A DNA stretch of 64,000 nucleotides from Cyanophora paradoxa CCMP329 (GCA_004431415.1 QPMI01000428.1:440514-504513); one strand, 5' to 3'; counted from the first letter of the stretch, positions 34,521 through 64,000 are shown. Numbers and translations: made by a program. Notes: generated by a model from the sequence alone, not told the origin.

Positions 34521-35139
34521 CGGACGCACGGCTTAAGTTTCTTCTGCCATTTAGATTTCGCTGCTGCGATAGCGAGCTAATGATCATGCATATGATCATG
34601 ATCGAAGTCTGGCCGACCCAGGCCAACGCCGAGAGAGCGCTAGCTGCAACCTGCAAATGCTGGGTTTGTTGATTTAGCCCCCGGCCACCTTGCACATCCT
34701 GATCGTGAGACGAGCAGGGGGCGGGGGCGGGAATTCACGCATTGAATTCGAATATCTACATCATGACATGGAAAATTAATCTGTACGTGGGCCCAAGTAT
34801 TCGCATGACAGCCTGCAGGCGGATCCCGGAAGTTGAGCTGCTGATCATGAAGGGCCTACAAGTATACGTAGGCTACAACTGGCCGCTTTCAATGGCTCTC
34901 TCGGTAGCGTGGAAAAACGGACTCGGAAACTTGAAAAACGGACTTCCGATCGAGGGAGAGAACGGACGGGAAACTCTTGTGTTAGAATGATTAGTGCTGG
35001 AATAATAGTCCTTGTTGTAATAATAATGAGAAAATTCTTGTGTTACAGTAAATGATGTTCGAATAGCTCCGATTGTGTACGAATAGCTATAGCTAGAGTC
35101 ATAAATGAAATGACGTATGCACGCTTAGGCAAGTCATGA

Positions 35140-37475
35140 TCAGCGCCAGCCGCTGAGCCAGATGCGGGCCTCGTACTGGGCCTTGGTGAGGGGCAGGGCG
35201 TAGACGAAGGGCGCCCAGTACACGTAGGCGGCGAAAATGACGGCGAGGAGGGCGGCCGCGACGGCCTTCAGGAGGCGGGGGCGGCCCCCGAAGACGCGCT
35301 CCAGCAGCACGGCGCTCATGTAGATCGCGCAGAGCAGCGCCGGGAAGTAGTGGTAGAGAAATTTCGATCGCGAGATCGATACGTAGCTGCGCGGGAGGGT
35401 GGGCTGGGGTCAGAGAGGGCGAGTGCCGGGGAAAGCAGGGCGGGGCGGGGCGGGCGGACGGGAGGAGGTTGAGTAGCCACTCCATAAAGAGGAAGGCGGT
35501 GAGGGAGAGGTAGCGCTGCGAGGCCGCCGAGAAGGGGACCTCGAAGAGCAGCATCGCCCCGCCCACCACCAGCGAGATCGCTGGCTTTCGCTCTAAGCGG
35601 ACGCCGGCGGGGCGGAGCGGGGCGGGAGTGGGGGCACCGACGAGGATTGAGGTGCCCCACCAGACGGCGGGGTTGCCGAGGAGGTAGATGCGCGGGAAGA
35701 ACTCCTCGCGGGTCTTCGGGTGCTTCCGGGGCGGGTTCGACTGCTCCTGCCAGTAGAGGATACCGCGCTTGTTCAGCGGCCACGACCACCACTCGGACTG
35801 CCACGTGTGCGGGTTCTTGATGCCCGAGTTCGTCGCGTACATCGTCCGCGTCATCTCCCACGTCTTCTGCAGGAAGGTGATCGGCTTCGCGGCCGCCCGC
35901 TCTTCCGGCGTAAGGCTCCCCTGCCGCCGCGCGCCCCGCCCCGTCAGGGGACAGGAAGGCCGCGGCCTGGCGGGGCGGGGCGGGGCGAGCCTCGAGGGTG
36001 GCGCGGAAGGCAGGAGTCATGAACTTGTCCCCGGGGCCCGAGAGCGGCAGCATGCGGAAGTGGAGCCACTGCGCCGGCGTCAGGCGGCGGCGGCGCGGGG
36101 CGCGGGGCGCGGGGCGGCCGGGCGGGGCGCGCCTGGAAGTAGACGTAGACGAGGACGGGAACGGCGGCGAGGAAGAGAGCGCGCGTGAGGAGGTCCCCGA
36201 AAAGTCGCGGGAGGGAGCCCCGTCCGCGCTTGGCCCGCAGGTTGTACAGCGTCTGCGCGGCGGCGGCGGCGGCGGCGGTTCACGATCAGACTCGGCGCTA
36301 GACGTCTCGCAGCCAAGTGGGCGCGAGGGCTCCGCGTGGGCCGCCCCGCAAGCAGACACGGCGCGCGCGGGGGGGCTCACCGCGACGACGTGGTGGACCC
36401 CGATGGCGCCCACGGCGGCGAGGGCGGTCCACTTGACGCTCGCCGCGAGGCCTGCCGAGACGCCCGTCGCGACCAGCCAGAAGTAGTAGCCCCGCGAGAA
36501 GAGGCGCCTGTCGTCCTGCGTGTAGCTGTGCAGGCTGCGCCGGCGGGCGCCTCAGCGGCCAGCGAGGGCGGGGCGCGCGGGGCGCACCAGAACGAGCAGA
36601 GCATGGCGAGCGTGATGAAGAAGAACAGGAAGCTGTCGATGAGGATGAGGCGGGACTGGACGAGCAGCGCCGTGTCGAACACGATCATGCACGCCGCCAG
36701 GAACGACGCCGTCAGGGACGCGCCCAGCTGCCGCGCCGTGAAGAACACCAGCGGGCACGTCAGCGCGCTCGCGCTGCCGCGCGGGAAGCGGGTCAGGCTT
36801 TCAAGCAGGGGTCGAGGGAGAGGGAGCCGCCGCCGCATGCGCACAACGCTGGCGCCCCGCGGAGGAGCATGTACGGGACGTGTTGCCCGTCCGCGTACTT
36901 GTCTCTGATGCTCTTGAACTCGAAGTCCCCCCGGTACTCCTTGCTGAAGCCCGCGGCCCACGCCAGAATCATCTTTCCCAGCGGCTGCGGGCGTGCGTTC
37001 GTCGGCGCGGACCTCGCTCGGCCCGACCTCCCTCGCTCACCGGATGGATGTCGAAGAAGAACTTGCCCGTGAGATAGCCGTTCGCGAACTTGCCGAAGTG
37101 CACCTGCAGGTCCCGCGCGCGGCATGAGATGTCGTATGTGGCGGGAAGCGGCGCGCCGGCGGCGTGACGGGCCTCGTCGAAGACGACCTCCGGCGGGTTC
37201 GAGAGCATCCAGAAGCGGGTCGCGAACGCGAGAATGCAGATGATGAGGACGAGTCCGAGCGAGTTGTCCTTCGAGCTCGCCCACGTCTGGTCCCACGTCG
37301 CGACCAGCAGCGGGCCCGCCTGCTTCTTCGTGTCCTCCGCGTCCTCTAGCTCCGCGTCGATAGCGCGGGAAGCTGCGCCCGACGGCCTCGACGCCGCCGG
37401 CTCCTGCTTCCGCCGGCGAACCTCGGAAGTCGCGATATGCGAGCAACGCGGGCACGCCGCTGCATGCCCTGCCAT
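35140..37475 (-). CDS. Protein O-mannosyltransferase (PMT/POMT, GT39), copy 2, no MIR domain
   Basis: Near-identical tandem paralog of 30742-33057 with the same motifs and intron positions. The 3' flank is also duplicated (30660-30720 vs 35050-35110). Confidence 0.92.
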
Positions 37476-37892
37476 TTCCGCTAAGCAGCGGGACACTCCT
37501 GGGCCGTCCTGGCTGACCCCGCTCACCAGCCGCACACCGCTACCCCCCGTACCCGCTGCACATGCAAGCTCGCACGAGCCTCGAGCTCGGGGCTCTTGAC
37601 CGCCGAATTCGAACAGCTCAAACTTGAGCTCGAGCTCAAGCCGCCGCTGGCTATCTGTTGGGCTTGAGGGTGGAGGGGTACGAAAGACCAGGCGGGCGGG
37701 CGGCGGGCGCGGCAGCTAGCGCTCGCGCGGCGGCTCACGGCGGCTCGCGCGGCATGCTCTCGCGCGCCGGGCTGGAGCCGATCCAAGGCCAGGGCCAGCA
37801 GGTCGGCGCCCGGCGAATTAAAGCGCAGAATTCAAATTAAAGCTTATAATTAAGGCGGCCGGCAGACAGAGAGGAGGGCGCGCGGCCGGACT

Positions 37893-46100: not shown

Positions 46101-47179
46101 GGTTCGGTGCGCCCTCTCCGTCCCCTTCCTCCCTCCCCCTCCCACTCCTACTCCCTCTCCCCCCCCCCAACCCCAACCCCAACCCCAACCCACCGGCTCC
46201 TCCTCTCCTCCTCCTCCTCGGTCCCCAGGCCCTCGCCCTCGGGGGAATGATGGCGCTGCCTTGGCTTGACGGCACGCGGCCCGGCCCCCGCCCCCGCCCC
46301 CGCAGGTCAGGAGCACCTGATGGTCAACTCGTACCACCACCAGGTACTCCTCCCCGCCCCGCCCCGCCCCGTGCCCTTTCCCTCCGGCGCCCCGGCGCAC
46401 AACCCTCGGCTATAGCGCCAGCCAGCACCCCGCCCCTAGCGCGGAGCCTCGTTCTGAGCGCGCACCCCGGACCTGACCTCGTACCCCCCAGGGCGTCAAG
46501 CGCCTCGCGCCGAGCTTCAAGCCCATGGCCTTCGCCCCCGATGGTGCCCCATTCCCCCTCTCCCCCCCCCCCCCCCTCTTCCTTCCCACTCTCCCCCCCT
46601 TCCTCCCGTCGCCCCTCACGTCCGTTCCCCCCCCCCCTCCATTCCCCCCCGCAGGGCTCATCGAGGGCTTCTACGACCCCAACCACCCCTTCCGCATCGG
46701 CCTCCAGTTCCACCCGGGTACGTACCCCTCCCGTCCTCCTCCCCTATCCCCCCCCTCATCACCCCCCCCCCGCAGAGCGTATGATGAGCGAGCACCCGGG
46801 CTGCGCGCGGCCCTTCCAGGCCTTCGTCAACGCCACCAAGAGCTACATGGTCAAGGTGCGCCTAGCTAGGCTCATAATATATAACACGATGAATAGATAA
46901 TCTTGATCTAGACAAGCTATAGCTCCGCTCCCGAGCACCGTGTCCAGCATCGATTGCATTTGATAAAGAGCTGGAAGCATGCTAGCCCAGATCCTGCCGT
47001 CCTTTCGCCCCGCTCCCAATCCTCGAAGATATAGCGCAGCTGAGCGCCCTGCCGCCCTCGTTCTTCGCTCGCAGGTGGCGTCCGTGGGCGTGCACACGAC
47101 GCACTTCCGCCCCGCGGCGAGGCTCGGGCCGGTCGGGGACCGCCTCATAGGCTCCGAGTCCTTGTCGCCCAAGCAGTGA
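43199..47179 (+). CDS. GAF domain (NLP-like) fused to a class I glutamine amidotransferase / peptidase C26 domain (GAT1_2.1/PuuD-like)
   Basis: N-part: EAWIP...[10 protein letters not shown]...GLPGR...PEWIRDV...[22 protein letters not shown]-part: [43 protein letters not shown] (catalytic Cys), VNSYHHQG, DGLIEG, GLQFHPE (His/Glu). The last exon is tentative. Confidence 0.85.
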
Positions 47180-48149
47180 ATGTGAGTCACTGAACTCGGT
47201 CAGTTAGTGGGCCAGTGGCTCGCGCCGCGTTGTTTCAGCCGTTTTCGGCTTCTTTTTGGCAGCCCCGTTGTACCCTATCCGTATCAGTATTATTCGTAGT
47301 TTCTACAATGCAGACAGACAGCTTTTGGAGATCCCCGTTTTACAGGCGCAGGATGTCGCCAGACCAGTTTTGTTGCTACTACGTATACTCCTAAAGACCG
47401 ATCCCGGAGTCTGCACCTCCCAAGTTGTAAACAACGGAAGTTTTGGCCTCGGAGCGCGGCCTTCCCTGTTAGATTTAATTAGGCCCTGCCGCGTGCCACA
47501 GTGGCCCTGTAGTTCCTCAGAGTCTGGGTGGTTTTGACCTGTAACGTTAGCTATAGCTATAGGTCCTAATTCTTCTGAATGCCCGGTCGTCGATTCTCTG
47601 GGGTCTCCTCATGTCTTTTAGCTCTCGCTGAATGTACACTTGTACTCGCTAGAAGCAGGCGCGCGTGTTATTCGTTCACCACGAAATTTGGAGAATTGAG
47701 GCTTATCATTCGATCGAGAGGCCCGGCCCTGACTTGCAAACCCCCCCCTCCCTGCCTGGCCGGACCTATCCGAGCAACTTTTTTTTGTAAACCCCCCCCC
47801 CCCCCCCCCCCCCGAGCTCTGGGCTAGAGAAGGGGGAGAAGCAACTCGAATTTGAAGACTCGAGCTCGCGCGATCGATCGAGCTAGTGTCGAGAACTAAG
47901 GGGGATCCGGACGTACGTACGTATACGTACTGGAATCGGAATTCGATCGAAGGGGATCGGGCCAAGGCCGGATTACGTACGCGCAATGATCGAAATCGAA
48001 AGCTAGGGGAATGTTTTAAAGAAGGAGACGGATCGAAGGTGACATATTTTTTTGCAATCGCGGGAGCCTTTCAAGTTTTCTCCTCTAGATCTCGCGATCG
48101 GGACTCCACAAGCAGTTCTCAGTCACAGGGCCTGCGGTCGAGATAAATC

Positions 48150-49466
48150 ATGCCGGGGGGCGACACAGGTGACGCCAGCGACACGAGCCGCGACCTAGGT
48201 AAGAAATACACGCGAAATTTCGTGAGCTCGAGGATTTCGCGCACTCATTCTTCGCCAGACTTCGTCGACGCTACCTCGGGGGCCCGCGAAAGTGCGCATC
48301 AGGATGTCGGCGCACTCCCCTCCACGCTTCGAATTCTGGGCTCTCGCGGCGGTGGCCAAGGTGTGCAATTGCAAGAAGGCGCTCTCGCCCAAGAACTAAT
48401 TCGCGCCCTCGCCCTCGCCCTCGCCCATGGCCAGCGCTGTTCGCGATGGTGCTGTCCATCGCCATCGTGTACTTGGCCACGGGCTATCAGGCGGCGATCC
48501 AGGCCAAGTCGGTCAGCCGACGGACGTCGACTGATGTCGACGTCGTTTCTTCGATCTTGCTAGCTGCAGCTGATCTTCGAGGCTTCACGCACAGATAGAG
48601 CAGGCCGCTGATTTCAAGGAGCTGGCCCGGGCGGTGCACATGCTCATGCACGATAACGAGTAACGTTAACGATTGAGGCGAGGGGCTTGCAGATTACGAC
48701 CGTCGCGGAGCGTGCAGCTGCCTCCGAAAGCAAATTAGTCGAGGAGCGCGCAGCTGCCTCCGCCACCGCGGAGCGCGCAGCTGCCTCCGAGGCCAAAAAT
48801 CGCGCGCTAAACGTGAGTACGCTAATATTTCCTTCTATACATCTATTTCCGCGCGATAAATATACATCTATTTCCTTTCGCCGCATATGCATACCCGATT
48901 TGCAAGCTCGAATAGGAATCGATATGATTTTCCCCTACATTAAATTTGCCTTCGCGCGCGCGCAGGAAAGCCTCCACACTGCCAAGCAGGAAATAGAGGC
49001 GCAGAAGAAGCGTGCGGAGAACGCAGAGGCAGATCTTGCGGTGCGGTAAAATATCGAATTCGCATCCCTTCTAATTTCTTGAAGTCTTTGTTCTAATTAT
49101 ATATATAATCGTGAGCTTTGTCCCATGATCAGGCTGCCAGTCGGGAGATTCAAGTCGGTCCTGGCCCCGGGGCGAAGATCATAGACGCCGTGCGACGTGC
49201 CGTGCCGGGCCAAACCATCCGGCTCGCCCCAGGCCGGTGCGTCATGATTAGATACATATGCGCTTGCAGTTCGTGCAGATATCGATGCGCAGCACGCGCA
49301 GGTATTATTTGAAAGAAACCTTGATTTTGGACAAGGATGTCCGCATCGTTGGGACGCGGGAAGCCGTGCTGGAGTGGGATAAGGACGCATCTATTCAGAC
49401 CTATGGCGCCATTCTCTGCACAGGCCCTGCATCGCCACGCCTGGAAGGACTCACCGCTCGCATGGG
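48150..49466 (+). CDS. Host coiled-coil plus right-handed beta-helix protein, interrupted by the viral element
   Basis: Coiled-coil exons (ERAAAS repeats, AKQEIEAQKKRAENAE) are followed by IIDAVRRAVPGQTIRLAPGRYYLKETLILDKDVRIVG, a typical beta-helix cap. Coding-like sequence stops at the compositional switch. Confidence 0.6.
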
Positions 49467-49791
49467 GGTGAGCCCCACCAATTGTGCGACCTTCCCGCGA
49501 CCATTTTCAATAAGCACATTTTCAGCATCACGAATCTCAGTCACAAAATCACAAATTCGCACTGAGCCACACTGTATTTTTCAAACATCTAACCCCTCCT
49601 TACTGAAACCAATCACAAAAACCTACATATAATCTTTTCTCTAATTCCTTACCATTCCCAGTAAGCCCTTAAACCCTCCCTCGATTTCTCAGTAAGGACA
49701 GTAAGACCCCTATTTTTACGAAATGTTCCCGATCGTTTCCGGACTGTTTTCAGTTAGCCAAATTGAAAAATCAAGGTGAGCCCCACCAATT
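49467..49791 (+). repeat. 17-bp direct repeat GGTGAGCCCCACCAATT bracketing the non-coding element end
   Basis: Exact copies at 49467-49483 and 49775-49791. Confidence 0.9.
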
Positions 49792-49838
49792 AAACAAGTG
49801 ATCCCCACTTAAAGACTTCCCGATAATATACTGTAACA

Positions 49839-50162
49839 ATGGCAAGCGATCAAGTAACTCTACCTGAGAGTAAGCAATGCAATGTATGCAACAAGGTAAA
49901 ACCGGCATCGAGTTATACATTGCAAAAGGGTAGCTCAGGAAGTATACTTTTGAATTGGAGATGCAAAGTCTGCGAACGTGACTATCGCAATTACCTTTAT
50001 CATTTCGTGTTAAAAACGCGTCCGAAGATCGAAGTACAATCGAAGATATGCTCGCACTGCAAGATTGAGAAGCCTGCAAGCGAGTATAATAAAAAACAAA
50101 GCACAAAGGATGGTCTCTACTATCAATGCCGAGAATGTTATAGTAAAACTCGTAAGAGTTAA
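49839..50162 (+). CDS. Small viral Zn-finger protein (two K.C..C...KP..Y...C..C modules)
   Basis: Four CxxC pairs in two similar modules, resembling Zn-binding modules at the N-terminus of phage HNH/EndoVII proteins. No nuclease domain is present. Confidence 0.7.
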   Translation: MASDQVTLPESKQCNVCNKVKPASSYTLQKGSSGSILLNWRCKVCERDYRNYLYHFVLKTRPKIEVQSKICSHCKIEKPASEYNKKQSTKDGLYYQCRECYSKTRKS

Positions 50163-50379
50163 AACCGAATTTCATTTTATATTTTTTAAAGCGAGTTTGT
50201 GCATGAGCAAGCATGCCGAAAATGCCCACCTGCACAAACTTGCGCACCCCATCGACAAAGTACGATGATCGACGAAGTACGACGATAGACCACGTTAAAA
50301 TAAACTCGCGCCCCGCCCACTATGCAAGATACATGCCTTTCTTATGCATGATCTATGTAAAAACAATTATTTCAATGCC

Positions 50380-50643
50380 TCATTCCTCAGCAACTGTATT
50401 ATACTCGATGCCTTTCTTTACGGTTCCCCTTTGGAATGCCTGTAATACAATGGCTTCCTTTGAGGTTGGTATTTGAACTCCTGATGAGATGCAAGATTGA
50501 ATTTCTTTTTGAACAATATCATCGATTGCGATTCTTGCCCTATTGTGAACCACATTATCAATCCAATCCTGAACGGATAAAGCGCAATACTCCATTCCCA
50601 ACTTCTCAATATCAGATAGAACTACTTGGTATATATTTGACAT
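50380..50643 (-). CDS. 87-aa phage-like protein downstream of the C1q fibre (possible fibre partner or chaperone)
   Basis: Motif SVQDWIDNVVHNRARIAIDDIV...IPTSKEAIV recalls small proteins that follow C1q-domain fibre genes in aquatic phages. This is recognition from memory, not a search result. Confidence 0.55.
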   Translation of the reverse strand: MSNIYQVVLSDIEKLGMEYCALSVQDWIDNVVHNRARIAIDDIVQKEIQSCISSGVQIPTSKEAIVLQAFQRGTVKKGIEYNTVAEE

Positions 50644-50664
50644 CTCTACTTAATAGAGAGAAAA

Positions 50665-51684
50665 TTATGTGATACTTAGAAGTTCACCTGTGAAAAGTGT
50701 TCTACTTGAATAACTACCTGTGGAACCTGTGACAAGTGTTACATACTCACCAGCAGGAACATTGATAATTGCACTGAGAGTAAGAGGTTTTGTTGTGATA
50801 GTGGAATTAGCTTCTACTGAAATGTTAACTCCATTGGGTAAAAGATTATTTTTCAGAAAACTAAGACTTATTGCAGCACTTGTTGTTGAATTGGTATATG
50901 CTGTAAATCTATAATCACCTGCAACAGGAGCTGTAAACCTTCCATTAGTAACATCGAATGACCCTGTATTATTTATCAAAACGGTTGTCCAATTGATCAG
51001 AGCGGCTGCACTTGTAGCAACATGAGTATATCCAAGTTGAACAGAAAATCGTGGCTGAGAAACATATTTTAAATAGCTTGAATTCAGAGTCAAACGATTG
51101 GCTTCCAGTGTTGCAAAAAGATCACTGTTACGTTTTAACAGCAGATTAACATCTGCTCCTGTATCTATTTCAGGAGTGACCACCTTGGTTGATGCTGTTA
51201 TTATTGATTCTGTGGAATTGGGAATACTAATTCCAGCATTTGCTGTTACCAATCCTGTAAATGTGCTTGTTCCTGTTATGCTTACTTGATTGGCTGTAAG
51301 GGTTCCATCAATCCTTGCCCCATCTCCAATATAAGCGCCTCCACTTCTTACTACAAGAGCTGAGTTATTGATGGTGTTGTCAAAGGTAACAATCTTTGGT
51401 GTGGTGAACCCTCCCACATCATCATAAATTGCTGAATCTGATACAATCTGACCTGATTGAACTTGGTTCTTGTTTGAGACTATTAGACCTGTGGTTCTCA
51501 CCTTGCCTGCATTTCGATCACATCGAATTTCTTTGCATCTGATCACAGAATGTTGAGAGAATGAATCGGCTCCTGTGGTCTCTGTGCAAATGAAACCTGG
51601 GGTAGCATCTGTTACTGTATGGTTGAGTTGATGCAATTTCGGCGCTGCATAACAGAAAACAGGAACAGCTATTTGTGTAGACAT
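50665..51684 (-). CDS. Viral fibre protein with C-terminal C1q/TNF-like head (paralog A)
   Basis: Intact 339-aa ORF with a beta-rich shaft and C1q signatures PRFSV, NNTGSFDVTNGRFTAPVAGDYRF, GEYVTL and FTGELL. Confidence 0.8.
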   Translation of the reverse strand: MSTQIAVPVFCYAAPKLHQLNHTVTDATPGFICTETTGADSFSQHSVIRCKEIRCDRNAGKVRTTGLIVSNKNQVQSGQIVSDSAIYDDVGGFTTPKIVTFDNTINNSALVVRSGGAYIGDGARIDGTLTANQVSITGTSTFTGLVTANAGISIPNSTESIITASTKVVTPEIDTGADVNLLLKRNSDLFATLEANRLTLNSSYLKYVSQPRFSVQLGYTHVATSAAALINWTTVLINNTGSFDVTNGRFTAPVAGDYRFTAYTNSTTSAAISLSFLKNNLLPNGVNISVEANSTITTKPLTLSAIINVPAGEYVTLVTGSTGSYSSRTLFTGELLSIT

Positions 51685-51706
51685 TCTTTATATTATACAA
51701 ACAATA

Positions 51707-52770
51707 TTATGTAGCACTTACCAGGTAAACCAACAAGATGTGATTGCTTGGAAAGTCAATACTACCTAACATACAGTAAATTTGAAGACTGTCTCCCATG
51801 GTGAGGGTAATAAGAGCTTCGTAGCACATCTGATTCCTGCTTGATTGACTTGCATATGAAAGAATCTGATTTGTATTGTTTCCGTTTATTCTTAGTCCAA
51901 TCTGGGTCAAGGAGGCAGTTGCAGTATTGTCTTCCGTAATTGTAAAATAGACCCTATAAACTCCTGAAACAGGGCTGTAAATGTTGCTGGATACAGTTTG
52001 TCAAAATGACCCTCATTATTCACAAGATATGTTCCAACTGGAAAAGGAAGTGTTGGGGTGCCGGAACTAACACTTGTTCCAAAAATCTGAGCGTTTGCTT
52101 GTTGTCCTGAAATACACATTCTTGGGCAATAGCTGCGTTTAAGACCACTGTTTGTTGGAAATGTGATTGCTTTCAGATCTGTTATTGTCTTTTCGAGAGT
52201 GAAAATGATATCTCCGTTTCGTTTATAATTCACATTTGCATCTGTCCCATTATCCATCTCAGGTGCATTAACTCTTGTAGTAGCTATTCGAGTAACATAG
52301 TTAACATCTCCTGAGAGACCACCATTAAAGGTCATCAATCCTGTGAATACACTTGTCCCACTCACATTTAATTGGTTTGCTGTAACAGTTCCTGCTACAT
52401 TTGCTCCATCTCCAATGTAGGCTCCTCCACTCTTGACTACAACAGCAGAATTATTACTTGTGTTACCAAAAGTAACTATCTGAGCTGTGGTAAATCCACC
52501 CACATTATCATATATTGCCGAGTCTGAAACCACTTGACCTGCTTGAACTTGATTTTTATTCGAGATTATAATTCCTGTGGTTCTTATCTTGCCTCCATTG
52601 CGATCACATCGAATCTCTTTGACTCTGAGTATATTATTCTCTGTGAAAGAGGTATTACTTGAAGTTTCAGTGCAAATAAACCCGGGTGTAGAATCAACTA
52701 CTTCATGAGAGGTGCTGTGTAGTGATTTTGCTGCAAGTTCATAGTTTGGGATTTCTAATAGAGAGGTCAT
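51707..52770 (-). CDS. Viral fibre protein with C1q-like head (paralog B), one apparent frameshift
   Basis: N-terminal ~140 aa closely match paralog A (TPGFICTET, KEIRCDRN, SDSAIYD.VGGFTT, SGGAYIGDGA). Adding one base in the GGG run at ~51973 restores FTAPVSGVYRVYF and joins ORF 51707-51910. Confidence 0.75.
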
Positions 52771-52789
52771 CTTTATATTAATCAAATAG

Positions 52790-54355
52790 TTAAATTGCGA
52801 CAGCAGTGTAATGAATTGTAACTGGAAATCCTGGTCTGTCAAAAGAACTTAATGGAACTATGTCAAGCTCACAAGTGAAATAGCTACTGTAAACTTGTTT
52901 AAGCCTTACATACATGCGGTAGTAGTAGGCTGTCTCATTGTGTTGTATACCGGTTGTTACAATAGGAGGGTTAGCAAAGCTGCTGTTGAAATTAATAGTG
53001 AGGTTAAACCTATGGTCAGGGTTTGCCCAAAGATAAGGAGTAGTGTAAACATACGTTCCTGCTTGAATTTTCCCATTAAAATATGCATTGAGTTGACTGG
53101 AAAGATCTGCTTCTGTAATGCATCTACTGATAGTCTGATTATTTGAAGGGTTCATAGCATAGAAATTCCTTGCATAGGCATTCCCTCTCACAAGTAAGGT
53201 TTTATCAAAGTAATTCTGCGAATTGTGGAAGAACCATGTTTCTTCAAACATAGGTCCTGCTGGTTCTACAATCTGACCTGATCCTACATACATTGTGTTG
53301 TTGGCTCTTATAGTGGTAGCTGTGAATGGATCCAGAGTAGGTCGATCTGTAATATCTCCCCAAAGGTGGGTGTGTGCGAAATCTGTAATTTGGGATTTTG
53401 TATGAGTATGAGCAAAGTCTGTAATTTCACCTTTGGTGTGAGTGTGAGCAAAATCTGTAATCTCACTCTTGACATGAGTGTGTGCAAAATCTGTTATCTC
53501 ACTCTTGACATGAGTGTGTGCAAAATCTGTAATCTGTGATTTTGTGTGAGTGTGCGCGAAATCTGTGATTTCCGATTTAAAATGAGTGTGAGCGAAATTA
53601 GTAATATCTGCTCGGGTATGGGTGTGTGCAAAATCTGTTATTTGGGATCTGGTGTGAGTGTGTGCAAAATCTGTGATTTCTGCCTTTGTGTGGGTGTGTG
53701 ATCTATTATTAAGGTCGAGGAAACTCCCCGAAAATGCAACAGGGTGTAGATTAGCTGCGGTGGGTTTGTTTATGAGATCATTATAGTCTCCTGAGAACGA
53801 AACCGTTTTCAGTTCACCCCTTCCTACATAATCAGAAGGGAGGTCAATTTTTATGGGCATTATAGCTGGATCATCTGGGATCACATACTCTCCACCTGTG
53901 TGAACCACAGGGTATCTTCGAATATACATATTGGATGCACCCATGAGAGGTGCTACAATGGGCACATCCGAATTAACGAGATTGCAAGTGATGGAGAAAA
54001 TGGTTTTGGGGGCATACAGATTGCAATCAAAGGTCACAGTGGCGGGATCAATAGTAGGATCTACATTTGAACAGATCTGAAACATCCACCCACCCACACA
54101 GTTGCAATTTAAATTGCGAAAGGCTGTGCCTGCCATTGCATCCACATAGCCTATTCCACTTGCAATGTCATAGATGTGCCCAAACTCATAACCAAAAATG
54201 TCATTCCACAGGTTGGAAGCCATAGCTCCCATCACATACCCTTTCAAATTTACAAGTAGGTCATTGGATTCACTGGGTATATTGCTATGGGTTATGTAAA
54301 ATTGATTATTCAACACAGCATTCCTAATTGTCGTCTCTACTATGGGCTCCGTCAT
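52790..54355 (-). CDS. Phage-type tail-fibre protein with HxH repeats and a C-terminal H-type-lectin/gp53-like domain
   Basis: Intact 521-aa ORF with SGDYNDLINKP and SGSFLDLNNR fibre motifs, ten AHTHxKxxITDF-type repeats, and C-terminus INFNSSFANPPIV...YFT...IHYTAVA. Confidence 0.8.
   Translation of the reverse strand: MTEPIVETTIRNAVLNNQFYITHSNIPSESNDLLVNLKGYVMGAMASNLWNDIFGYEFGHIYDIASGIGYVDAMAGTAFRNLNCNCVGGWMFQICSNVDPTIDPATVTFDCNLYAPKTIFSITCNLVNSDVPIVAPLMGASNMYIRRYPVVHTGGEYVIPDDPAIMPIKIDLPSDYVGRGELKTVSFSGDYNDLINKPTAANLHPVAFSGSFLDLNNRSHTHTKAEITDFAHTHTRSQITDFAHTHTRADITNFAHTHFKSEITDFAHTHTKSQITDFAHTHVKSEITDFAHTHVKSEITDFAHTHTKGEITDFAHTHTKSQITDFAHTHLWGDITDRPTLDPFTATTIRANNTMYVGSGQIVEPAGPMFEETWFFHNSQNYFDKTLLVRGNAYARNFYAMNPSNNQTISRCITEADLSSQLNAYFNGKIQAGTYVYTTPYLWANPDHRFNLTINFNSSFANPPIVTTGIQHNETAYYYRMYVRLKQVYSSYFTCELDIVPLSSFDRPGFPVTIHYTAVAI
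53345..53702 (-). repeat. Ten degenerate 36-bp coding repeats (12-aa AHTHTKSQITDF)
   Basis: Visible in the translation and as recurring GTGTG[T/A/C]GC[A/G]AAATCTGT on the + strand. Confidence 0.92.
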
Positions 54356-54393
54356 TATATATCTATTATTGCATACTACAAAAATTAAGGTTG

Positions 54394-57300
54394 TTACATA
54401 ACGTTTGGAACATGTTCATATATTCTTCCTTCTCGCTGTGCCATTTCCGCCATAAAGTCTGCATTATCTTTTATTATTGATTCAGCCATTCGTTGTGCTC
54501 GTGATTTTTTGGGTGCTGCCCTACTTGCTGGTGGTTGATCAGTTCTCACAACACTTAGACCATGCCCCTCGGCTGACCTCACCTCTAAGCCCACATCTCC
54601 TTCGGCTGTTTGGGTCACATTCAGCTCAGGTGTGGAGTATTTATTACCTGCTCCTGCAATGGTTCTGTCTATGCAAGCACAACATAAAGCTCGGAATTTG
54701 TATGCAAGCACAAGCCCAAGAGCACCGAGAATCGGTAAGAGAATCATAAGCACTAACGTTCCTGGATCAGTTCCCGGTGCTCCGACTGGATTAGTAGGAT
54801 TTGTGGGATTATTAGGTGTTGTAGGATCAGTGGTAGGTGGGGTCTGTGGGTCTGACTCATCAGGAGGCAAGTTAGGATCTGAATCTGGGGCGGTTCCGTC
54901 GACCCTGCTAATGAGGTCGGCGCTGTGTATGCATTTGCAAACACGATGGGAGCCGTCGCTGGATTTCCTGTGGAGGATCCTGAGATTGCACCATAGGTAT
55001 CTGACAGATATTTATACAATTCCTGTGTCACAGGCGGATTACTCACAGATCGACACACCCAAATATTGCATGTGGTATCATAGACTGTGTCCCTGATAAA
55101 GGGCGGTAGAGCCGTCCCACTGAATGACTCAAAGAGTCCATTTCGCGATAGCAACCTATGTCCTGTATCACAATTCCCACCCTCAAAGTACTTCGAAGCC
55201 GAAATCGCACCTTGCACATAAATATTGCATGTCGAATGCAATCCAATGTTATTTAGGTTAGGAGTGTATCTGTCATCAAGCCGGACAGTGCACACCCATG
55301 GGGAAGCGGTTTTTATATATTTCTTATCGCCTGCTGTGATCACATCAGTGTTTGGGTGGCTGTCAATTTGGGTAGCAATAGACTCATATTTGTAAGAGTA
55401 ATAAACTAAGAGACCATCTGTGGAGGATGTAAAATAAAAGAAGTCTCTCATGAAGTCTGTGGATCCAAAGAAGTCAGCATTGGTCGATGTTAGGGTGACT
55501 CTGGGATAGCTCATGTTGACAGTCTCAGAAGGATATGGAATATAAGAGGTGTAATAGCGATTTAACAGATAATAGTAAAATCCATCTGAGACATTCGAGT
55601 GAGTGGGCAAGGTCACTGTTAAGGTCTTACTGCGATCCTCAAACGTTTTATGTATGACAATATTGCAAGTATTAATGTATCGAGAATCGAAAAAGTAATT
55701 ATTCGTCACTCGATTATCGATCAGAGTCGCATTGGTTCCATTAAACACGAAATTCTGCCCATTAATTCTCGTAGTATGAATGTCGGTCACATCGAGAGGA
55801 TACCTTATTTTTAATCGATCTTCGGAGTCAAACCGAGGTATAGTTCCTGTTGCCTTCCAACTAATAGTAAAGGGAGGAGAAAGGGACACTGCTGGGATAA
55901 CGGAAAGATTGAATTTCGCGAAGTACAATCCAACAGGATACCCTGACAGAGCATATGTGACAGTGGCATTTCCAACAAGTGTAAAGCCGGTTGTTGTAAT
56001 GTTAGTTGCAAGAAATGGGGAGTAGCCTGCGGGTGCATTTTGAAGTGAGGTAGATGACCCATCATTGACGACATACAAGTTGGTGTCTGTTATTTCAATT
56101 GTAGGAGGGGAGACAAATGGAGACTCAAATGTGAAATTAAAACTCGCTGGAACCCCTGCAAGATATCTATATGAGACCGATCCTATTTCAGATGCCTGGA
56201 ATACTTTGCTTCCACTCCGCACTACATTACTTGTGTCTTTCACATTGTGGTATGATATGCTGGGAGTCGGGGAGAGCACCAACGAAATAGCATCTGGTAA
56301 ATCAGACTTTGTTATATACAGCTCTTTAAGATACTCCTTTCTAAAAGGCGCGGTCAGATCTCCAATAGTAGCCGATGAACCTGCGACTACAATATTACAG
56401 GTGTTTGCACTCAAAGAATAAACTGTGTTCCACCTTAAAGAGTTCGCGCCAAGATCGAAATTCTGTGAGAAGGGCACGATATTGCTACCTTGTAAATCTC
56501 GGTAAACCTTTACTCTGGGTTCGCTATCGAATTCAGGGGTGATATAATTGATGGTAAGAGTGAAACTTATAGTAGCTTCGGAAGTCAATAAGTTGTTTCG
56601 GATGATAAGTAAATTGTATGTCTCGTTAATGACAAACGAAATCTGAAACCCTGTGGAGGTGACATTTTGAATAAATGCTTTATTCGATTCATTATTGTTA
56701 GTGATAGGATTATAATAAGTAGTGTGATCCACCAATGAAACAGTGGGTATAGTCGTCTCGAAACCTGTGACACCCAACTGATCCCAAGTGAATGTAAATG
56801 TAGGTTTGCCTACATAAGCGACAAAGACCCCATTTGCAATCTGCTGAGGGTATCCTTCGACAGTGTAGGTCTCAGTTTGCGAAACTGAGCGGGAAAGGTT
56901 GCTATTAAAGTCAGTGTAGCTGATCAGTGCATTATCATTGGTGAGAATCTGATTGGGTCGGAGTGAGTGATTAAATGGAAGGATTAAATTGGAGGCAAAC
57001 ATGGAAACTCCATGCAACTCTGACCATCTCAGATTCGAGAGACCAATTCGGTATGTGTTGTCAGTCGCGGGGTAAATGTTCCTTTTCGATAAAATATGGG
57101 CTAAGGTAATTGCAAGCGCTCCATCTGCTGCAAACAGAGCATTAATTTCGGATTGCAAAGCCGCGATTTCAGTAGTGTGGGTCGTGAGGGTTCCATCCTG
57201 ACTTGAATCTTTGGTGTTCTTGCTCCTCTCGAACTCCAAAAACGCCTTTACGATGTCCTTGCCTAAAAGATCGTTTATATTGTCTCTGGTAATGTAAACA

Positions 57301-58105
57301 TGATCTGTTCTCAGTGCTGTTTCTCTGTGGTAAAAGCCGGAATCTCCTCTGCAAATGATATAGTCGTTTTATCAAGTGCTAAGGATCTCACATTCGGAGC
57401 ATTGGCGCCAATTATATCCACAACGTTCCCATTTTCGACAATTTCTAAGGTCGGTTTCGCGGGGTCTAATGTGAAAACACCCTCTGTTATCTGGGGAACC
57501 GATTCGCTCTTCTGAATCACAAAGGATTCGATGTTTAGGTTACAGGTTGCGACATTGGTGGCGAAAAACGACTCGGAGTTAAGCGAGTTTACGTTAAGAG
57601 TATTTGTAGATATGTTACTTGCTGTAATATTACTCGTCGTTAGATTACCTGCTGAGAGATCATGAACGACCTCTACCTTTGTTTTCCGTGTGGATACTCC
57701 CGCTATAAGTGTGCTATTATCCACGATTCGCATAGCTGCATTTTGGAAACCGCTCTCATCTTGAATGAAGAAGTTTAAGCGACCTCTATCGAATGCTTTT
57801 GGGATGTTCCTACGATTATATCGCACCGTTTTCGGTAGCTGGCGGGTTGCCTGAATGCTGGCGACTCTGTTTCGTTCGTTATCATCAAGTAAAAAGTCGA
57901 TTCCAAGTTTATGATCCCCTTTCTCGACGTTCATTAACTGCAAAGCTGCGGGTCTGCTCGGTGTTCCACTGACTGGATCTTCGCGGTCTGCATTGTAATT
58001 TATTCTCAGAGACCCGCGAATTTCAGTGTTTACCTGATCAGTGTCCTCTATCTGAGTGGTCGAATTAATAACTCGTGCGTCTGGTCGCGGATTCAGGAAC
58101 GACAT
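54394..58105 (-). CDS. Large (~1,240 aa) fibre-like viral protein with a C-terminal transmembrane helix, two apparent frameshifts
   Basis: Three ORF-track pieces join if one base is added at ~57321 (GAGAAA[A]CA gives EKTALRTDHVY...LEFERSK) and at ~54888 (gives EPPPDSDPNLPPDE). Contains fibre motifs YPATDNTYRIGLSNLRW and PFSQNFDLGANSLRW, lectin/gp53-like segments, a P/T/N/D linker and TM LVLMILLPILGALGLVLAY followed by KFR and CCAC. Confidence 0.65.
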
Positions 58106-58148
58106 CCTCTTTATAAACAAAGAAGATATATAAGAAGTATATAAGATA

Positions 58149-59641
58149 ATGAAGACCGTCCTCGCTTTGAGTGGTGGAGGGTCGCGTGGAATAATCGAGG
58201 CTGCTATACTGGCACAGATTGAAGCCCAAACCGGTAAACGAATCCAACAGCTATTCGACTGCTTTGCGGGAACATCCACAGGTGGATTAATCGCGCTCCT
58301 ATTGAATATCAAGGGAACCGATGGCGCCCCTAAATATACTGCCACTGATATTCTGGCGCTCTACAAAGCGAAGCTGCCGCTGATTTTCGCGAATCCACGA
58401 GTGCTTACATCGATTGTACAGCGCCCAAAGTACGAAGCAACTAACTTAGAAGCTGTGGCTCTGGAACTCTGCGGCTCAGCGACTATGGCGGATCTCTATA
58501 AACCCACCATCGTGACTGCGTTCGACACGGTCTTAATGTCCCCCGTTTTTATTTCAAGCAACGATGAAGATATTAATGGGATGCTTGTGCGCGATGCTGC
58601 AAGGGCTACCTCAGCTGCGCCCACCTATTTCGAGCCGAAACAAGTCACAGTCGCCGGAAGAACATACTGTTTAATTGATGGTTGCATGAGTGGAAATAAT
58701 TCGCCCGGGGTTTGCGGCTACACATTCGCCCGCACTTTATTCGGAAACTCTTGCGAGGAGGAGCTTATAGTGGTCTCGATTACGGCGGGTCACGTCCAAG
58801 ACTCTGATAAGGCGACATCTGGATATTCGTACGACGCTATTAAGAATTGGGGGATCGTGCAATGGATGCTAAGCGCCACAGGATCGCCAATTCTCAGCAT
58901 GTTCTTAGAGTCGAGTGATCTAAACGCCCACGTAAAGCTGCTGGAACTTTTACCAAGAAACGATGATCAGAATTACGATCGCTACTATAAGCTGAGTGTG
59001 CCTTTACCGAAAGATAAAATGACCCTCGATACTATCACAACGAGTCACCTGCAATATTTGGAAACGGAAGCGCTCGCGTTTGTTTCCGCACAGCAAACGT
59101 ATTTTAATGCGATGTATTCAGTGCTGACGATGAATATATCAGAGGGAGACGTTCCCATTATTAATCTGTCCGGGTGCACAGATGTAAGCGCACCCCCGGA
59201 GTCTAACTGGGTGCCGCTCGATAATAGCGCCTTTATTGCGGAATTTGGCACAGCTTCTGATGCCCGCTGGTCAAATGCTACGGGGTGGGTGGGATTTACC
59301 AACCGCCGCAAGGTAGTAGGTCGGGAGGCAATTATTTACGCATTGATTTTCCGCGTCTGTTTATGCTTTCCTCTATAAAAATGAAGCCGGCTGCGAATGG
59401 AAACTACATTAAAACGTTTGAAATCGATTACCAATTAACTCCGGGAGTTTCGGCGCTTGTCACATACACAGAAGCCGGCGCGACGAGAGTGTTTACCAAT
59501 GCAAATCAAATAGCCGGAAGTGTAGAGCCCGACGAACATTTCTTAGCGAACCCGAGATCTGTGAGAACCCTCGTAATCTGGGTGCTCACGACGAACGTAG
59601 CTTCGGCATGCCGAATTGATTTCGAGGGCTACTACGTGTGA
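58149..59641 (+). CDS. Patatin-like phospholipase fused to an F5/8 type C (discoidin) domain, one apparent frameshift
   Basis: LSGGGSRG, FAGTSTGG (GxSxG), ATSAAPTYF and IDGC (DGG variant). Adding one C at ~59303 continues into NYLRIDF...YIKTFEIDY...RVF...RIDFEG, a discoidin pattern. Confidence 0.82.
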
Positions 59642-59676
59642 CTTCCTTCGGTCGTTGCGCGCTGACGAGACAGCGC

Positions 59677-60520
59677 TTAATCCGTGATCACTTCGAGCTG
59701 GAACGAGAATGAGAGACCGTTTATATCCGCAACAGAGCCCGCCATTTTCGAAGCGATATTGTGAGACGATCTAAATCGAGTTGCGATGTGACATTTACGA
59801 AAGGGATGCTTGCGCTCGGTTCGTGGTAAAAGGAATATCTACCAAAGTCCGAGTTCATCTGAATTCGCAATAGATAGGAGTCGTCGACATTGTTCTGTCT
59901 ACCTGTAACCGCTGCGAATTTGGTAAACGGGCGGAGCTCTTCGATATCAAGGTAAATATATGGAATTGCATTAAAGTCGACCATTTTCGGGCATATAATC
60001 GCGTAGCGACTGGGGTAATCTCTGAGTGGAACCGGCACTGGTTCTGGTGTGCTGGCGTAAACCACTCCGGGTTCTATGCCGAGACAGTCACAGAACTCCT
60101 GGTCTGATGACTCTAATGTAAAAGGGCTATTCGGAGATGAGAAAACGAAGCGGTTTGTGGACAGAGCGAGAGAATAGGAAACCGGGAAGAGACCGAGAGG
60201 ATTAAAAGAACCGCCTGAAAAACCGAGTAAAGCATCACTGTTTAAAGCTCTCTCTTTCGGATATCGTTCGTTATCAGCATCGACGTAATAATAATCGTTT
60301 ACGCTGGGAATCGGCGCCATCACTTGGATGCTGGTATGACTGAGGGCGTCTCATTCAGAAGCTTTATAGTGATTGTCTGATTGGGTGGAACAACGTAAGA
60401 GCTATTGGGAATCTCAGCGGATAGCACACGAAATCGTCGTACATTATTAAGGCGCGTTTTCAAGTGCAGCACGCCGTTTTCAAGGTCTCTACTGTCGCAA
60501 TTTATTGTTATTCTTTTCAT
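59677..60520 (-). CDS. Minor capsid (penton)-like protein 1, apparent frameshifts
   Basis: INCDSRD, LNNVRRFRVLSAEIPNS, YIYLDIEEL, LDRLTISLR and, after a frameshift, G..ADINGLSFSFQLE, which follow the single-jelly-roll penton pattern of PLVs and NCLDVs. Confidence 0.7.
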
Positions 60521-60536
60521 AATCTATTATAGTAAG

Positions 60537-61460
60537 ATGAAAGAATACCTGAGCTTTTCGAGCGATGATCGCGATGAGGAGTTTACTCAGCCAAACCAGT
60601 ATGTAGTGACATTACCCCGTCGCTATGACAACGTAAAATCGGTGCGCCTGGTGCAGGCAACGGTTCCAATGTTCTTTCGACCGTGACAAACGATATAGAC
60701 GCGACTGGTGCAACCATCGAGCGCATGGAACTCTATTTCTCGTCACAGCTTCGGATTCCGGATTCGTGACCATCACAATCCCCAAAGGATTTTACACCAA
60801 AGACGACCTTGCCGCAAAAGTCACAGAAAGACTCGAAGCAGCTCGCCTTTCAGATTTCGGTGGAAAATATATTAAATGCCGCTATAATACTACTTCAAAG
60901 ATCTATGAGTTTTTCAGTGATAGTAACTTTTGGTTCAAGTTCTCCAAAGCTTCCCCTGAAACACTCAGAAAATCCAGTAATCGCAAAGCAATCGCTAAGA
61001 AACTCGCAATATTCGGTTTCAAAGATATTCAGCTATATGTTTACGAGACATTTACCCCTTTTGCAAGCGATACATTCCTTGTGTTTAATCCTGGGACGGG
61101 AACTGTGACACTCAATCGACGCATTCGCGGCTATACTCGTGGAGATGAGACCCCGGCGGCGATGATCTGGCTATATATTGATGAATTTGCGCCGTTTATT
61201 CGCTCAGTCAACAAGCACGTCGATGGTTATTTCATGCGCATTCCAATCCCACAGGAACTCGAACATGGTGATATCTACCACTTCGACACGTCCACTACGG
61301 TGCCTCTCATTCGTGAATTCGCGAATTAAAATCTTTCGACCGCCTCACGATTAAACTCATCGACCATGATGGCGCTCTCTTAGATTTCGGGGTTTGGGCG
61401 CATTATTTCACTTTTGAAATCGAAACCTACGACGCACCGCCCGAAATGAATTTCTATTGA
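60537..61460 (+). CDS. Minor capsid (penton)-like protein 2, apparent frameshifts
   Basis: FSSDDRD...PNQYVVTLPRRYDNVKSVRLVQATVP, ITIPKGFYT, IWLYIDEF and FDRLTIKLIDHDGALLDF...YFTFEIE. TGA at 61460. Confidence 0.72.
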
Positions 61461-61506
61461 GCCCTGTAAATTATTTTCTGATCCAAAGATAAGAGAAGAA
61501 ACGCTC

Positions 61507-62815
61507 ATGGAGACTAACAGCCAATTCCAGCGCCCAACGCTGAAATCTATGCTCACCACCGATGACTACAAGGATTATTTCCTAAACAAGTCGCTGGTCA
61601 TTGGAACGTCCTCTGGCACTAAGCCACTTCGAGTTCTGGTCGCCCCGACACTGAGCCACCCAGCGCTCTCGGCAACCGAGTTGTCTTCAAAATCCCCCGC
61701 TACCATTTCCTGAATGGTCTCGCGCTGCAACTCGATCTTAACCGATCACCCTCACTGATCTCACGAATGGTGTCGCTGGAACTACTGGCTACCTTCGCGT
61801 TATTGGATCGCTAATTAAGCGCATTGAAATCTCTCACGCTTCATTCCGCTATGTTGTCCCAGAGGATTTCGTCACCCAGTATTTTCTACTGATGACCGAA
61901 CAGGGCGAACTCGATAAGAAACTTCGCTATGTGGGTGGTCTTGTCGGAACCGCTGGTAACACTGTCGGTGGAACCTACGAAATCGATTTACCTCTCCTTT
62001 CGAGAAGGCGATGTTCCCACTTTGCGCTCTGAACTCTGAGATCGTGGTCGAAATCGAATTCAAGGCGATTGGTGATGGTATCATTGAGGATGTAAACAAT
62101 GTTGGCAATATTTCGGTCGTAAACAGTGGTGCTTCCTTCAAGTGCTGAAACCCCGCATTATCTGCAAGGTCGTAAATGCCGATGAGGCGGTTGTATCTGA
62201 GACCATTGCCCGTGTTAAATCGACTGGTATCGCGATCCCCTACAACGAAATCGGTTTCCTACACACAGATTTCCAGCCGACCGCCTCCGGTTCGCGAGTC
62301 AATCTCTCGCAACTCACAGGTGCGGGTCTCATCCACACTCTCGTATTCTCTGTGCGCCAAAACGCGAAGACGAAGGTGAACAACGGAACTCTCTCGGTTC
62401 TGGCTCCTCGTGCACTCCGAACCAACGCTGTGAACTTCTATGTGGAACTCAACAATAACCGCCTTTACTCGAATACTTCGCTTCCTCTCATGATTGCCGC
62501 GACCGAACTTCAAGATAAATATAATTCGGCGATCTTTACCGAGAGCACAAGCTACCCGCTCTCACTGGCATTTACTTCGGTGCTGGAAACGGAAAGGCGT
62601 CGCTTCTCAACCAAGAGAACACGGGCTACATCGATGCCACAGGCACATCGGCGTTCGATCTGGTCTTCGAATTCAATGGTGTCACAGCCGGTGGAGTCGG
62701 TAATGAGGAGTGGTATGCGGGCTCCGCGTATCAGAAGATGCAAATTCAGTGCATTGCCCTCGCTCATAACATAATGATAATTTCCGCCGACGGAATCCGA
62801 AGAGTATCAGCATGA
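61507..62815 (+). CDS. Major capsid protein (double jelly-roll, PLV-type), ~435 aa, several apparent frameshifts
   Basis: Reconstructed reading includes VVFKIPRYHFLNGLAL, SLIKRIEI, MFPLCALNSEIVVEIEF, GIAIPY, IHTLVFSVR and HNIMIISADG. Size and position between penton and ATPase fit a capsid gene. Confidence 0.7.
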
Positions 62816-62872
62816 GGAATTCGTGCGATTACCACATTCAGTCTTATTTTTCTATTGTTTTATAGTGAAAGA

Positions 62873-63694
62873 ATGCAAAAAGGGACGACGCCCATGGATC
62901 TCGAAGAATGGAACCGAAACAAAGGGTGAAACTTCCCGCACGATTTCTCCTATTGGCGAAAACCAATTGTGGTAAATCGGTATTCTTAAAGTGGCTGATC
63001 AAAGAACTCGAAGACCAGATCTCGTATGTCTGGTTTTCTGTCCTACGAGTTTTAACGGTTTCTGGGTCAAATAACAGACGAAGTGCATGATACTGGAAAC
63101 CGGAATATGTAGAGTCGATCATAGAAGCCCGCAAGAAAGCTATCATCGCTGGAAAGAACCAAAGAATATTCTCATCGTACTCGACGATTGTTTGAGTCCG
63201 GAACTATCGATCTTTCGCGCGATCATTTGCTAAATAAATTGATGGCGCAAGGTCGTCATACGTTTTGTTCCGTCGCTTTAATATCGCAGAAACTAACAAA
63301 GCTTCAACGATCATTCGCAGCAATGCGGAGTATATCATATTCCTAAGCTGGTCAAACATGCGAGAGTTTGAAGCATATCACGAAGATTCGGGAACATGGA
63401 TAAAGAGAGTTTAAGCGCATGTTCCAAGAATTCTGTCATAGCTACCAAGCGATCATTCACGATAATACCGGGTATTCTGTGCGATGGTGGGTCGAAAAAG
63501 CCGATATGATCGATGACCATCCGTTTACTAAATTCCACAAGCGGGCGGCTTTTGAAGAAAAGAAGCGCAAACAACAAGAGGAGCAAGCGACAAAACCGCC
63601 GCCTGTCAAAGATTCGACAACTGTCTGTAAAACTTTATCCAAATTTGAGCGTGAGCTTGAAGGTATCCCCAAACTTTCCGCAAATTTCGCCTAA
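62873..63694 (+). CDS. A32-like (FtsK/HerA) genome-packaging ATPase, many apparent frameshifts
   Basis: Walker A AKTNCGKS (62956-62979), Walker B NILIVLDDC, then MAQGRH, ISQ and IRSN, in the order typical of viral packaging ATPases. Confidence 0.88.
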
Positions 63695-63732
63695 GAAAAA
63701 GAAAATGTTAATCAATGTAAGAGAAGATAATC

Positions 63733-64000
63733 ATGGTCTACCGAAAGAAGCCTCAAACCATTCAAACGGTCGCTTCTGGTAATCCTAATCGCGGACTTGA
63801 AGAGTCTGGATTAACGTCGGGCGGCGGTCTCGAAATGCCCGAATATCTTATAGACACTTCGCCAGAGAGGTCGCCAAGCAAGAGGCGATTATTGCGAGTG
63901 CCACCGCGGACAAGGGAAACCAAGATAGCGGTAAACGCCAAATGGAGGATTTAGCTACTGTAAAACCACAGATTGGAGGCGGCTCTGATGAAGCAACCGA
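63733..64000 (+). CDS. Viral hypothetical protein, probably continuing past the window end
   Basis: ATG with the same A-rich AAGA context as the other viral genes. No recognisable domain. Confidence 0.45.

Follow-up and report, generated by a model that had tools for sequence, protein, structure and literature searches.

Endogenous Polinton-like viruses (PLVs) are common in protists. Tetraselmis PLVs carrying a major capsid protein (MCP), a minor capsid protein (mCP), an ATPase, a tail fibre and an FA58C protein are induced by a giant virus (10.1101/2025.10.09.676808; here and below, papers are cited for their accessible parts). For the glaucophyte Cyanophora paradoxa, Bulzu et al. 2025 (PMC12220804) mention a PLV with a PTR-PTR-H-lectin fibre and report discoidin, alone or fused to patatin, in PLVs of Rhizaria and glaucophytes. 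Bellas et al. 2023 (PMC10120064, Table S2) list 366 C. paradoxa MCP hits (272 + 94) in two clusters marked 'new', by column count the unnamed clusters 21 and 29 (Tables S2 and S4). Here we analyzed 64,000 nucleotides (nt) of C. paradoxa CCMP329 (GCA_004431415.1, QPMI01000428.1:440514-504513), called the window in the following, for which an endogenous PLV with a capsid module inserted in a host gene had been predicted from the sequence alone. The junction, the MCP and a first penton gene support this prediction. The overall best explanation is probably that positions 49456-64000 are the left 14.5 kb of an integrated PLV, one of about thirty copies, lying in a likely host exon; that it is a provirus of the PLV type is in itself very likely, as an MCP of the double-jelly-roll (DJR) type, penton 1 and an integrated multi-copy state with a sharp terminus are all present. 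The original prediction had also supposed a lineage undescribed in this host, which in this form is not supported, given the published C. paradoxa MCPs (PMC10120064) and PLV (PMC12220804). The element is of an ordinary kind, already catalogued in this host as unnamed MCP clusters in a public table, and what we add are a corrected left end, an error signature of the assembly, a variable fibre cassette and a promoter lead. The features that carry the argument are as follows, with amino acids given as aa and open reading frames as ORFs.

49133-49236 and 49302-49455, plus strand: two exons of a likely host gene (splice dinucleotides present, frames open, depth as for a single copy)
49456-64000, no strand: left 14.5 kb of an endogenous PLV, extending past the window (composition, contigs, terminus)
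49456-49791, no strand: non-coding left terminus common to many copies, with two exact copies of a 17-mer (49467-49483 and 49775-49791)
59721-60520, minus strand: second penton-like gene (penton 2), weak, in pieces (BLASTP to penton 1)
60537-61460, plus strand: penton or minor capsid protein (penton 1), in pieces (Atlas features; no Pfam match)
61507-62815, plus strand: DJR MCP by predicted fold, about 435 aa, in six frame pieces (features, fold, relatives, near-identical published MCPs)
62873-63694, plus strand: likely A32-type packaging ATPase at motif level, in pieces (motif order; Pox_A32 E=0.095 for one piece)

The GC content falls from 0.659 over 1-49455 to 0.435 over 49456-64000 and is already 0.559 in 47000-49455, so that the step at the junction is sharp but smaller than the window averages imply. 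The ORFs to its right are long and unspliced, many short frame pieces occurring in 59.3-64 kb, and the proposed shift from GC-rich, intron-dense to AT-rich, intronless DNA is thereby borne out. Twenty of the 24 sequencing runs listed carry 0.58-0.65 of the words of 47500-57400, all under one organism label and none listed as RNA, and the flank-contig, depth and indel results come from four of these 20, the DNA runs X1, X2, X3 and X20. In all four, one contig as deep as its host neighbour spans 47748/47824-49483 with 0 other letters, having no gaps in X1, X3 and X20 and two in X2. Bridging was defined in the contig comparison as 31 letters on each side; the flank contig reaches 28 letters past 49455, under this rule, and it presumably stops 30 letters after 49454 because a graph of 31-letter words has to fork where a repeat starts. 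Among the loose ends listed, three further X3 contigs, each bringing 255 or more unrelated letters, meet the element at 49452, 49454 and 49456; in X22 a contig of 1512 bases does so at 49455. As unrelated flanks meet the same terminus, the element begins at 49454-49456 and not at 49467, the boundary first proposed. This corrected left end is new. The five different flanks share at most four letters beside the element end, and therefore no strict attachment site is used. Since the flank contig is unbroken across 49455, these runs should hold no common empty allele, within the limit that contigs drop rare variants. The 17-mer at 49467-49483, which recurs at 49775-49791 (2 matches vs 0.14 expected) and carries a small hairpin, was considered as target duplication or attachment (att) core and excluded, being an internal repeat 11-13 bases inside the true end.

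Left of the junction, both exons are preceded by AG, a 65-nt GT-AG intron separates them, and the second one is open up to the insertion. The element thus likely cuts an open exon of a host gene, in agreement with the predicted insertion within a gene, and it likely knocked this gene out in the sequenced line. Searches of Pfam, other families and PDB sequences, together with a weak homologue search, gave no family match or homologue for the two exons; by eye their protein resembles the start of a right-handed beta-helix. The upstream part of the interrupted gene (47600-49100) has a lower GC content and AT-rich introns compared with its neighbours, is single-copy by depth and contains coiled-coil-like repeats at 48704-48797.

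Single contigs of the capsid block have 27-36 times the depth of the flank contig in all four runs and contigs closely matching 50659-52191 have 5-9 times that depth, both being rough ratios. The element is therefore one of roughly thirty close copies in C. paradoxa. A doubled depth, as a terminal inverted repeat might give, does not show in X1, where the single-contig depth at the element end is 1075 compared to 1217 in the core, summed depths being unusable. In two presumed RNA runs we saw contigs of the left termini of other copies (49456-49900, 3-21 differences) and none over the host exons; one of them carries 1.3 kb of a different flank, and they may be read-through transcripts or DNA.

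The six MCP pieces in 61540-62812 align to P0001, an intact relative, over its residues 1-431 and with identities of 47-69%. Using the 228-aa piece as query against 1.84 billion cluster representatives, three proteins were matched, namely P0001 (431 aa, 65%), P0002 (456 aa, 41%, a C. paradoxa protein in EukProt) and P0003, which was dropped as an unrelated repeat protein. With P0001 as query the homologue search recovered only P0001 itself, and with only two capsid relatives among the representatives the lineage is unplaced. The Atlas language-model features of the MCP piece lie nearest to DJR capsid clusters (0.96-0.97, recognition below the mark of the tool). All matches listed by Foldseek for the P0001 model against the PDB are DJR capsids (best E=2.7e-8), and in the BFVD fold search nearly all named matches are DJR capsids as well, with a TsV-S1 protein at rank 23. 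VIA places seven DJR proteins first (Z 8.5-11.3, six of them 10.2-11.3), mavirus (Z 8.5) and Sputnik (Z 7.2) falling below the other DJR proteins. The structural matches have 8-17% identity, and neither the MCP nor the pentons found a match in Pfam, PHROGs, NCBIfam or PDB sequence searches. For a near-identical C. paradoxa protein an HHpred match of 97% to an iridovirus MCP has been reported (PMC10120064). As judged from its features and the modelled fold of its relative, the MCP belongs to the DJR fold family, and the claim that 61507-62815 is a capsid ORF folding as a double jelly-roll is supported.

Descent from virophages is not indicated, as the MCP has about 435 aa compared to about 500-600 aa in the virophage type and 0 C. 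paradoxa hits stand in the virophage columns of the accessible tables; this comparison addresses descent and not a virophage-like life.

Two penton-like ORFs and a packaging ATPase had been predicted next to the MCP. Penton 1 stands by its Atlas features, which are nearest to a DUF5901 cluster (0.97; 12% of its members carry this domain), adenovirus penton base (0.94) and V18-19 (0.94). Penton 2 is less certain, its BLASTP match to penton 1 having E=0.002 and 27% over 55 aa and its structure model an unusable predicted local distance difference test (pLDDT) score of 32. The ATPase is weakly confirmed: 62873-63694 likely encodes an enzyme of the A32 type, judging from motifs that lie in order over three frames (Walker A 62956, FCPT 63036, Walker B 63180, GRH 63251 and SQK 63284). 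Walker A, Walker B and GRH/Q follow each other as expected for the A32 family. A weak sequence search found no homologue for the ATPase piece.

Several points weigh against the explanation given above. The P0001 model is that of a relative and not of the window MCP, with a mean pLDDT of 45 and a template modelling (TM) score of about 0.25 in the PDB search, and the VIA alignment is limited to P0001 residues 21-224, the first jelly roll being best resolved and the second not brought out by the model. The Pox_A32 match (E=0.095) concerns one 34-aa piece and is below the cut-off, so that neither the ATPase nor penton 2 has a match above one. PLVs in the broad sense have genomes of 15-40 kb with terminal inverted repeats and carry an integrase (YR or rve) and a replication gene. 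In the window no integrase, replicase, right end or target-site duplication is seen, the depth ratios that give the copy number are contig-based and rough, and the contigs represent the majority of the family, while this copy may hold true breaks. No related loci reading past the window were found among the viral and metagenome contigs searched.

The capsid cluster had been named in the original gene list, which omitted 8 kb of fibre genes and a patatin. The remaining features of the element are listed below.

49839-50162, plus strand: 107-aa double zinc-ribbon protein (PHROG 5558, E=2e-13; zinc-ribbon stretch of endonuclease VII/HNH families)
50380-50643, minus strand: 87-aa ORF of no family (ORF call, family searches)
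50665-51684, minus strand: fibre-like protein 1 of 339 aa, C1q domain at the C-terminus (Pfam C1q, E=1.7e-8)
51907-52770, minus strand: fibre-like protein 2, a paralogue of protein 1 (51% over 258 aa)
52790-54355, minus strand: fibre-like protein 3, 521 aa, with 12-residue phage-tail repeats and a C-terminal H-type lectin (Pfam)
54394-54747, minus strand: 117-aa ORF with a hydrophobic N-terminus, of no family (ORF call, family search)
54753-58105, minus strand: long gene of the fibre-like kind, with one frame break near 57316 in what is likely a single ORF of about 1,100 codons
58149-59641, plus strand: patatin-like phospholipase (Pfam Patatin, E=7e-22; PDB patatin, E=5e-17)
63733-64000, plus strand: ORF of no known family, extending past the window (ORF call, family searches)

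The patatin has an intact glycine loop, GxSxG and DG motifs and a frame break near 59302; the tail behind this break is discoidin (F5/8C)-like by eye and gave no match in Pfam or a dedicated search. Fibre-like protein 3 combines Pfam PTR (E=4.4e-7) with H_lectin (E=1.6e-4, below the cut-off) and is encoded with a 36-bp tandem repeat of 9.2 copies. In the long fibre-like gene the frame 57368-54753 is open, with weak matches to H_lectin (E=3.6e-4) and a PHROG tail protein (E=0.005). Fibre-like protein 2 has a likely frame break near 52000, and one contig gap falls over 51667-52191. Fibres 1 and 2 contain seven of the 15 contig joints listed, with depths close to single-copy, and therefore other copies differ there, even if part of these joints may be cross-mapping between the two paralogues. 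This variation of the fibre cassette between copies is new. The fibre block (50650-57000) has a GC content of 0.41 and a CpG observed/expected ratio of 0.52 and the capsid block (57001-64000) has 0.465 and 1.3, with a CpG ratio of 1.18 on the host side; this contrast fits modules of different history. In scans of the 14.5 kb with Pfam, PHROG and other families we saw no integrase, polymerase or protease and no gene for a viral late transcription factor (VLTF), HUH protein, RNA polymerase or Mriya48, and there is no Rfam match. The lack of a nearby protease, which had been used to favour a PLV and would suit the reduced morphogenetic module of Aquintoviricetes (Gezel/TSV-like PLVs), may reflect that the window holds only part of the element.

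From these genes a life cycle can be proposed. An integrase encoded beyond the window would insert the genome at unrelated sites. Repeats of C. paradoxa are CpG-methylated and silent (PMC12344493), and the provirus is therefore likely to be kept mostly silent by its host, probably by the same methylation. In an active element, MCP trimers and one or two pentons would form an icosahedral shell into which the ATPase packs the DNA, fibres would stand at the penton vertices with lectin or C1q tips binding the cell surface, and the patatin might help to cross a membrane during entry. The fibre cassette would differ between copies as receptor-binding genes often do. By analogy with the Tetraselmis PLVs, expression might be driven by the late machinery of a co-infecting giant virus, a helper-dependent, virophage-like life to which we give an even chance.

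A lead for such helper dependence, and no more than a lead, comes from the start codons, a new observation in this work. TATA begins 4-13 nt upstream of nine of the 13 likely starts, compared to 24 of 479 other ATGs of the element, three of 43 AT-matched ATGs and 2/13 in each of two windows further upstream. An internal ATG at 59381, also with TATA, is not a start and was left out of the set. Composition shuffles give P=3.5e-4 for this spacing (7/11 and P=0.003 with one of each divergent pair dropped) and a correction for any 4-mer gives P=0.010 (0.004-0.018 for 12-20-nt windows), values to be read knowing that motif and window were picked after looking. With a 25-nt window the enrichment is not significant (P=0.19), four starts (MCP, 50643, 54747 and 63733) are without TATA, and the literature search found no giant virus of glaucophytes or of this host, all of which speaks against helper dependence. 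The 5' untranslated regions (UTRs) implied at the nine TATA starts measure 5-12 nt. Late genes of African swine fever virus (ASFV) start on TA(+1)TA with a median 5' UTR of 9 nt (PMC7163114), so that the spacing found here is like that of asfarvirus late initiators, and in a pacmanvirus paper TATATA serves as the late motif for the transpoviron (PMC11788076). With one mismatch allowed, the Mimivirus early motif matches 37 places in the window, 49759 among them, and a sigma-70 promoter scan stayed at chance level. As a separate observation, an exact 10-mer lies just before the MCP and 63733 ATGs (61490-61499 and 63718-63727), a count at chance level; even allowing for one mismatch, the window has no further copy of it.

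Taken in full, the proposal of an unnamed, glaucophyte-specific PLV lineage living as a virophage, with about thirty proviruses that are largely intact, late TATA initiators of the asfarvirus type and swapped lectin/C1q tips, is a tentative one. If true, glaucophyte algae should have a giant virus still to be discovered, and the earliest-branching line of primary-plastid algae a reservoir of inducible defence against viruses. Should the start-proximal TATA be a late initiator, the provirus would also record the promoter form of this giant virus and offer a means of searching for it. It is possible, if somewhat doubtful, that the same provirus is instead autonomous, using host RNA polymerase II and replicating in the nucleus like the Tetraselmis virus TsV-N1, with TATA as host-type initiator or by-product of AT-rich spacers. 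The four starts without TATA would fit this, a full set of fibres and lipase fits independent entry (PMC12220804) and TSV is described as a nuclear lytic PLV (10.64898/2026.06.19.733378). On the other hand, TATA is enriched over composition-matched controls and too near to the ATG for a polymerase II TATA box, and only 35 of 845 host-side ATGs have it, though most of the 845 are not starts.

The many frame breaks raise the question of whether this copy is a decayed fossil in which the breaks are real. Six pieces make up the MCP and at least five the ATPase, this copy cannot be told apart in the contigs, and the published C. paradoxa MCP rows are truncated too (PMC10120064). Nevertheless a fossil is unlikely. 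The 12 indels listed of 57 are all one extra base in the runs, found in each of the four, which means one base missing in the assembly, and all 12 double a neighbouring letter (chance 0.44 each). This pattern is that of an unpolished long-read consensus in repeats, and the same frame-break artefact in repeats is described in PMC10120064. Moreover, the MCP pieces are explained without in-frame stops, the transitions in X1 are balanced without heavy deamination (A>G 95, T>C 90, C>T 87, G>A 110) and the flank contigs match with 0 other letters. The frame breaks are therefore likely mostly errors of this assembly. The indels attest open frames at those places for the family majority and not for this copy, and we consider it quite probable that the family has intact copies. 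Broken viral genes in this assembly should thus not be taken as decay.

We regard it as quite unlikely that the window shows the edge of a larger insertion related to Nucleocytoviricota, such as a giant virus, a mriyavirus or a PLV group resembling nucleocytoplasmic large DNA viruses (NCLDV). The best fold matches are indeed MCPs of iridovirus, chlorovirus, EhV, faustovirus and ASFV, penton 1 is nearest to the DUF5901 cluster, and PLV-sized NCLDV-like groups exist (10.64898/2026.06.19.733378). These fold matches have the low identities given above and come from structure libraries dominated by NCLDV capsids, whereas P0001 and P0002 have no Pfam NCLDV capsid match. The copy number of about thirty, the single sharp terminus and the compact block of MCP, penton and ATPase resemble a PLV, and in the 14.5 kb scanned no gene for VLTF, HUH or RNA polymerase is seen. 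A true Maverick/Polinton (Polintoviricetes), with a B-type DNA polymerase primed by a protein (pPolB), rve integrase and protease beyond the window, is very improbable: insertion at unrelated sites fits an rve integrase and adinto-like proteins have been noted in C. paradoxa contigs (PMC8502044), but both C. paradoxa MCP clusters stand by column count under 'iterative HMM searches / new' (PMC10120064), no protease lies near the capsid block, and the left end starts with GC and not with the AG of Polintons. That a host contig and a free virus were joined chimerically, a danger already named with the original prediction, can practically be dismissed although no contig listed extends 31 letters both left and right of the junction (the viral side stopping at 28), as in all four runs flank and terminus share one flank-depth contig that ends at a graph branch point and four other flanks meet the same terminus.

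Elsewhere in the window, a 4.7-kb array at 11418-16146 consists of 131 copies of a 36-bp unit (97% matches) coding for Glu-Thr-Pro-Thr repeats. It fronts a very large, nearly intron-free gene for a surface protein (about 11.3-26 kb) with weak Ig-like matches and a C-terminal hydrophobic stretch. Single-base frame slips abound in the array, again pointing to long-read deletion errors in repeats. Two tandem near-duplicate minus-strand genes at 30700-33200 and 34900-37500, by eye like protein O-mannosyltransferases, are separated by a GC-rich 40/80-bp repeat (33680-34507).

A search of the literature, with most subscription papers outside its reach, turned up no paper whose subject is glaucophyte PLVs, their ends or promoters, the accessible main text of Bellas and Sommaruga 2026 (10.64898/2026.06.19.733378) does not mention glaucophytes, and a term search of 10.64898/2026.10.13.758929 gave 0 hits. 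The integrated PLV described here can nevertheless be compared with several known systems. Rows 100 and 102 of Table S2 in PMC10120064, compared by eye, equal the MCP pieces of the window but for a few residues; that work treats capsid genes only, its accessible parts contain no end, gene map or promoter, and Cyanophora is not named in the main text. Fibre-like protein 3 has the same PTR and H-lectin architecture as the C. paradoxa PLV of PMC12220804, while a C1q-tipped fibre, fibre variation from copy to copy and the start-proximal TATA, all found here, do not appear in the accessible part of that paper. With Maverick/Polintons the element has the DJR MCP, penton, putative A32-type ATPase and dispersed multi-copy insertion in common, whereas pPolB, rve, protease and a 5-6 bp target duplication are not seen in its 14.5 kb and its capsid seems to fall outside any named Polinton cluster. 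With the Tetraselmis viruses Tsv-S2/S3b and TsV-N1/S1 and with Gezel-14T it shares MCP, mCP, a putative ATPase, tail fibre, a part that is FA58C-like by eye and endogenous copies, but our searches gave no close sequence match to their capsids and, unlike them, the C. paradoxa element has two penton-like and four fibre genes.

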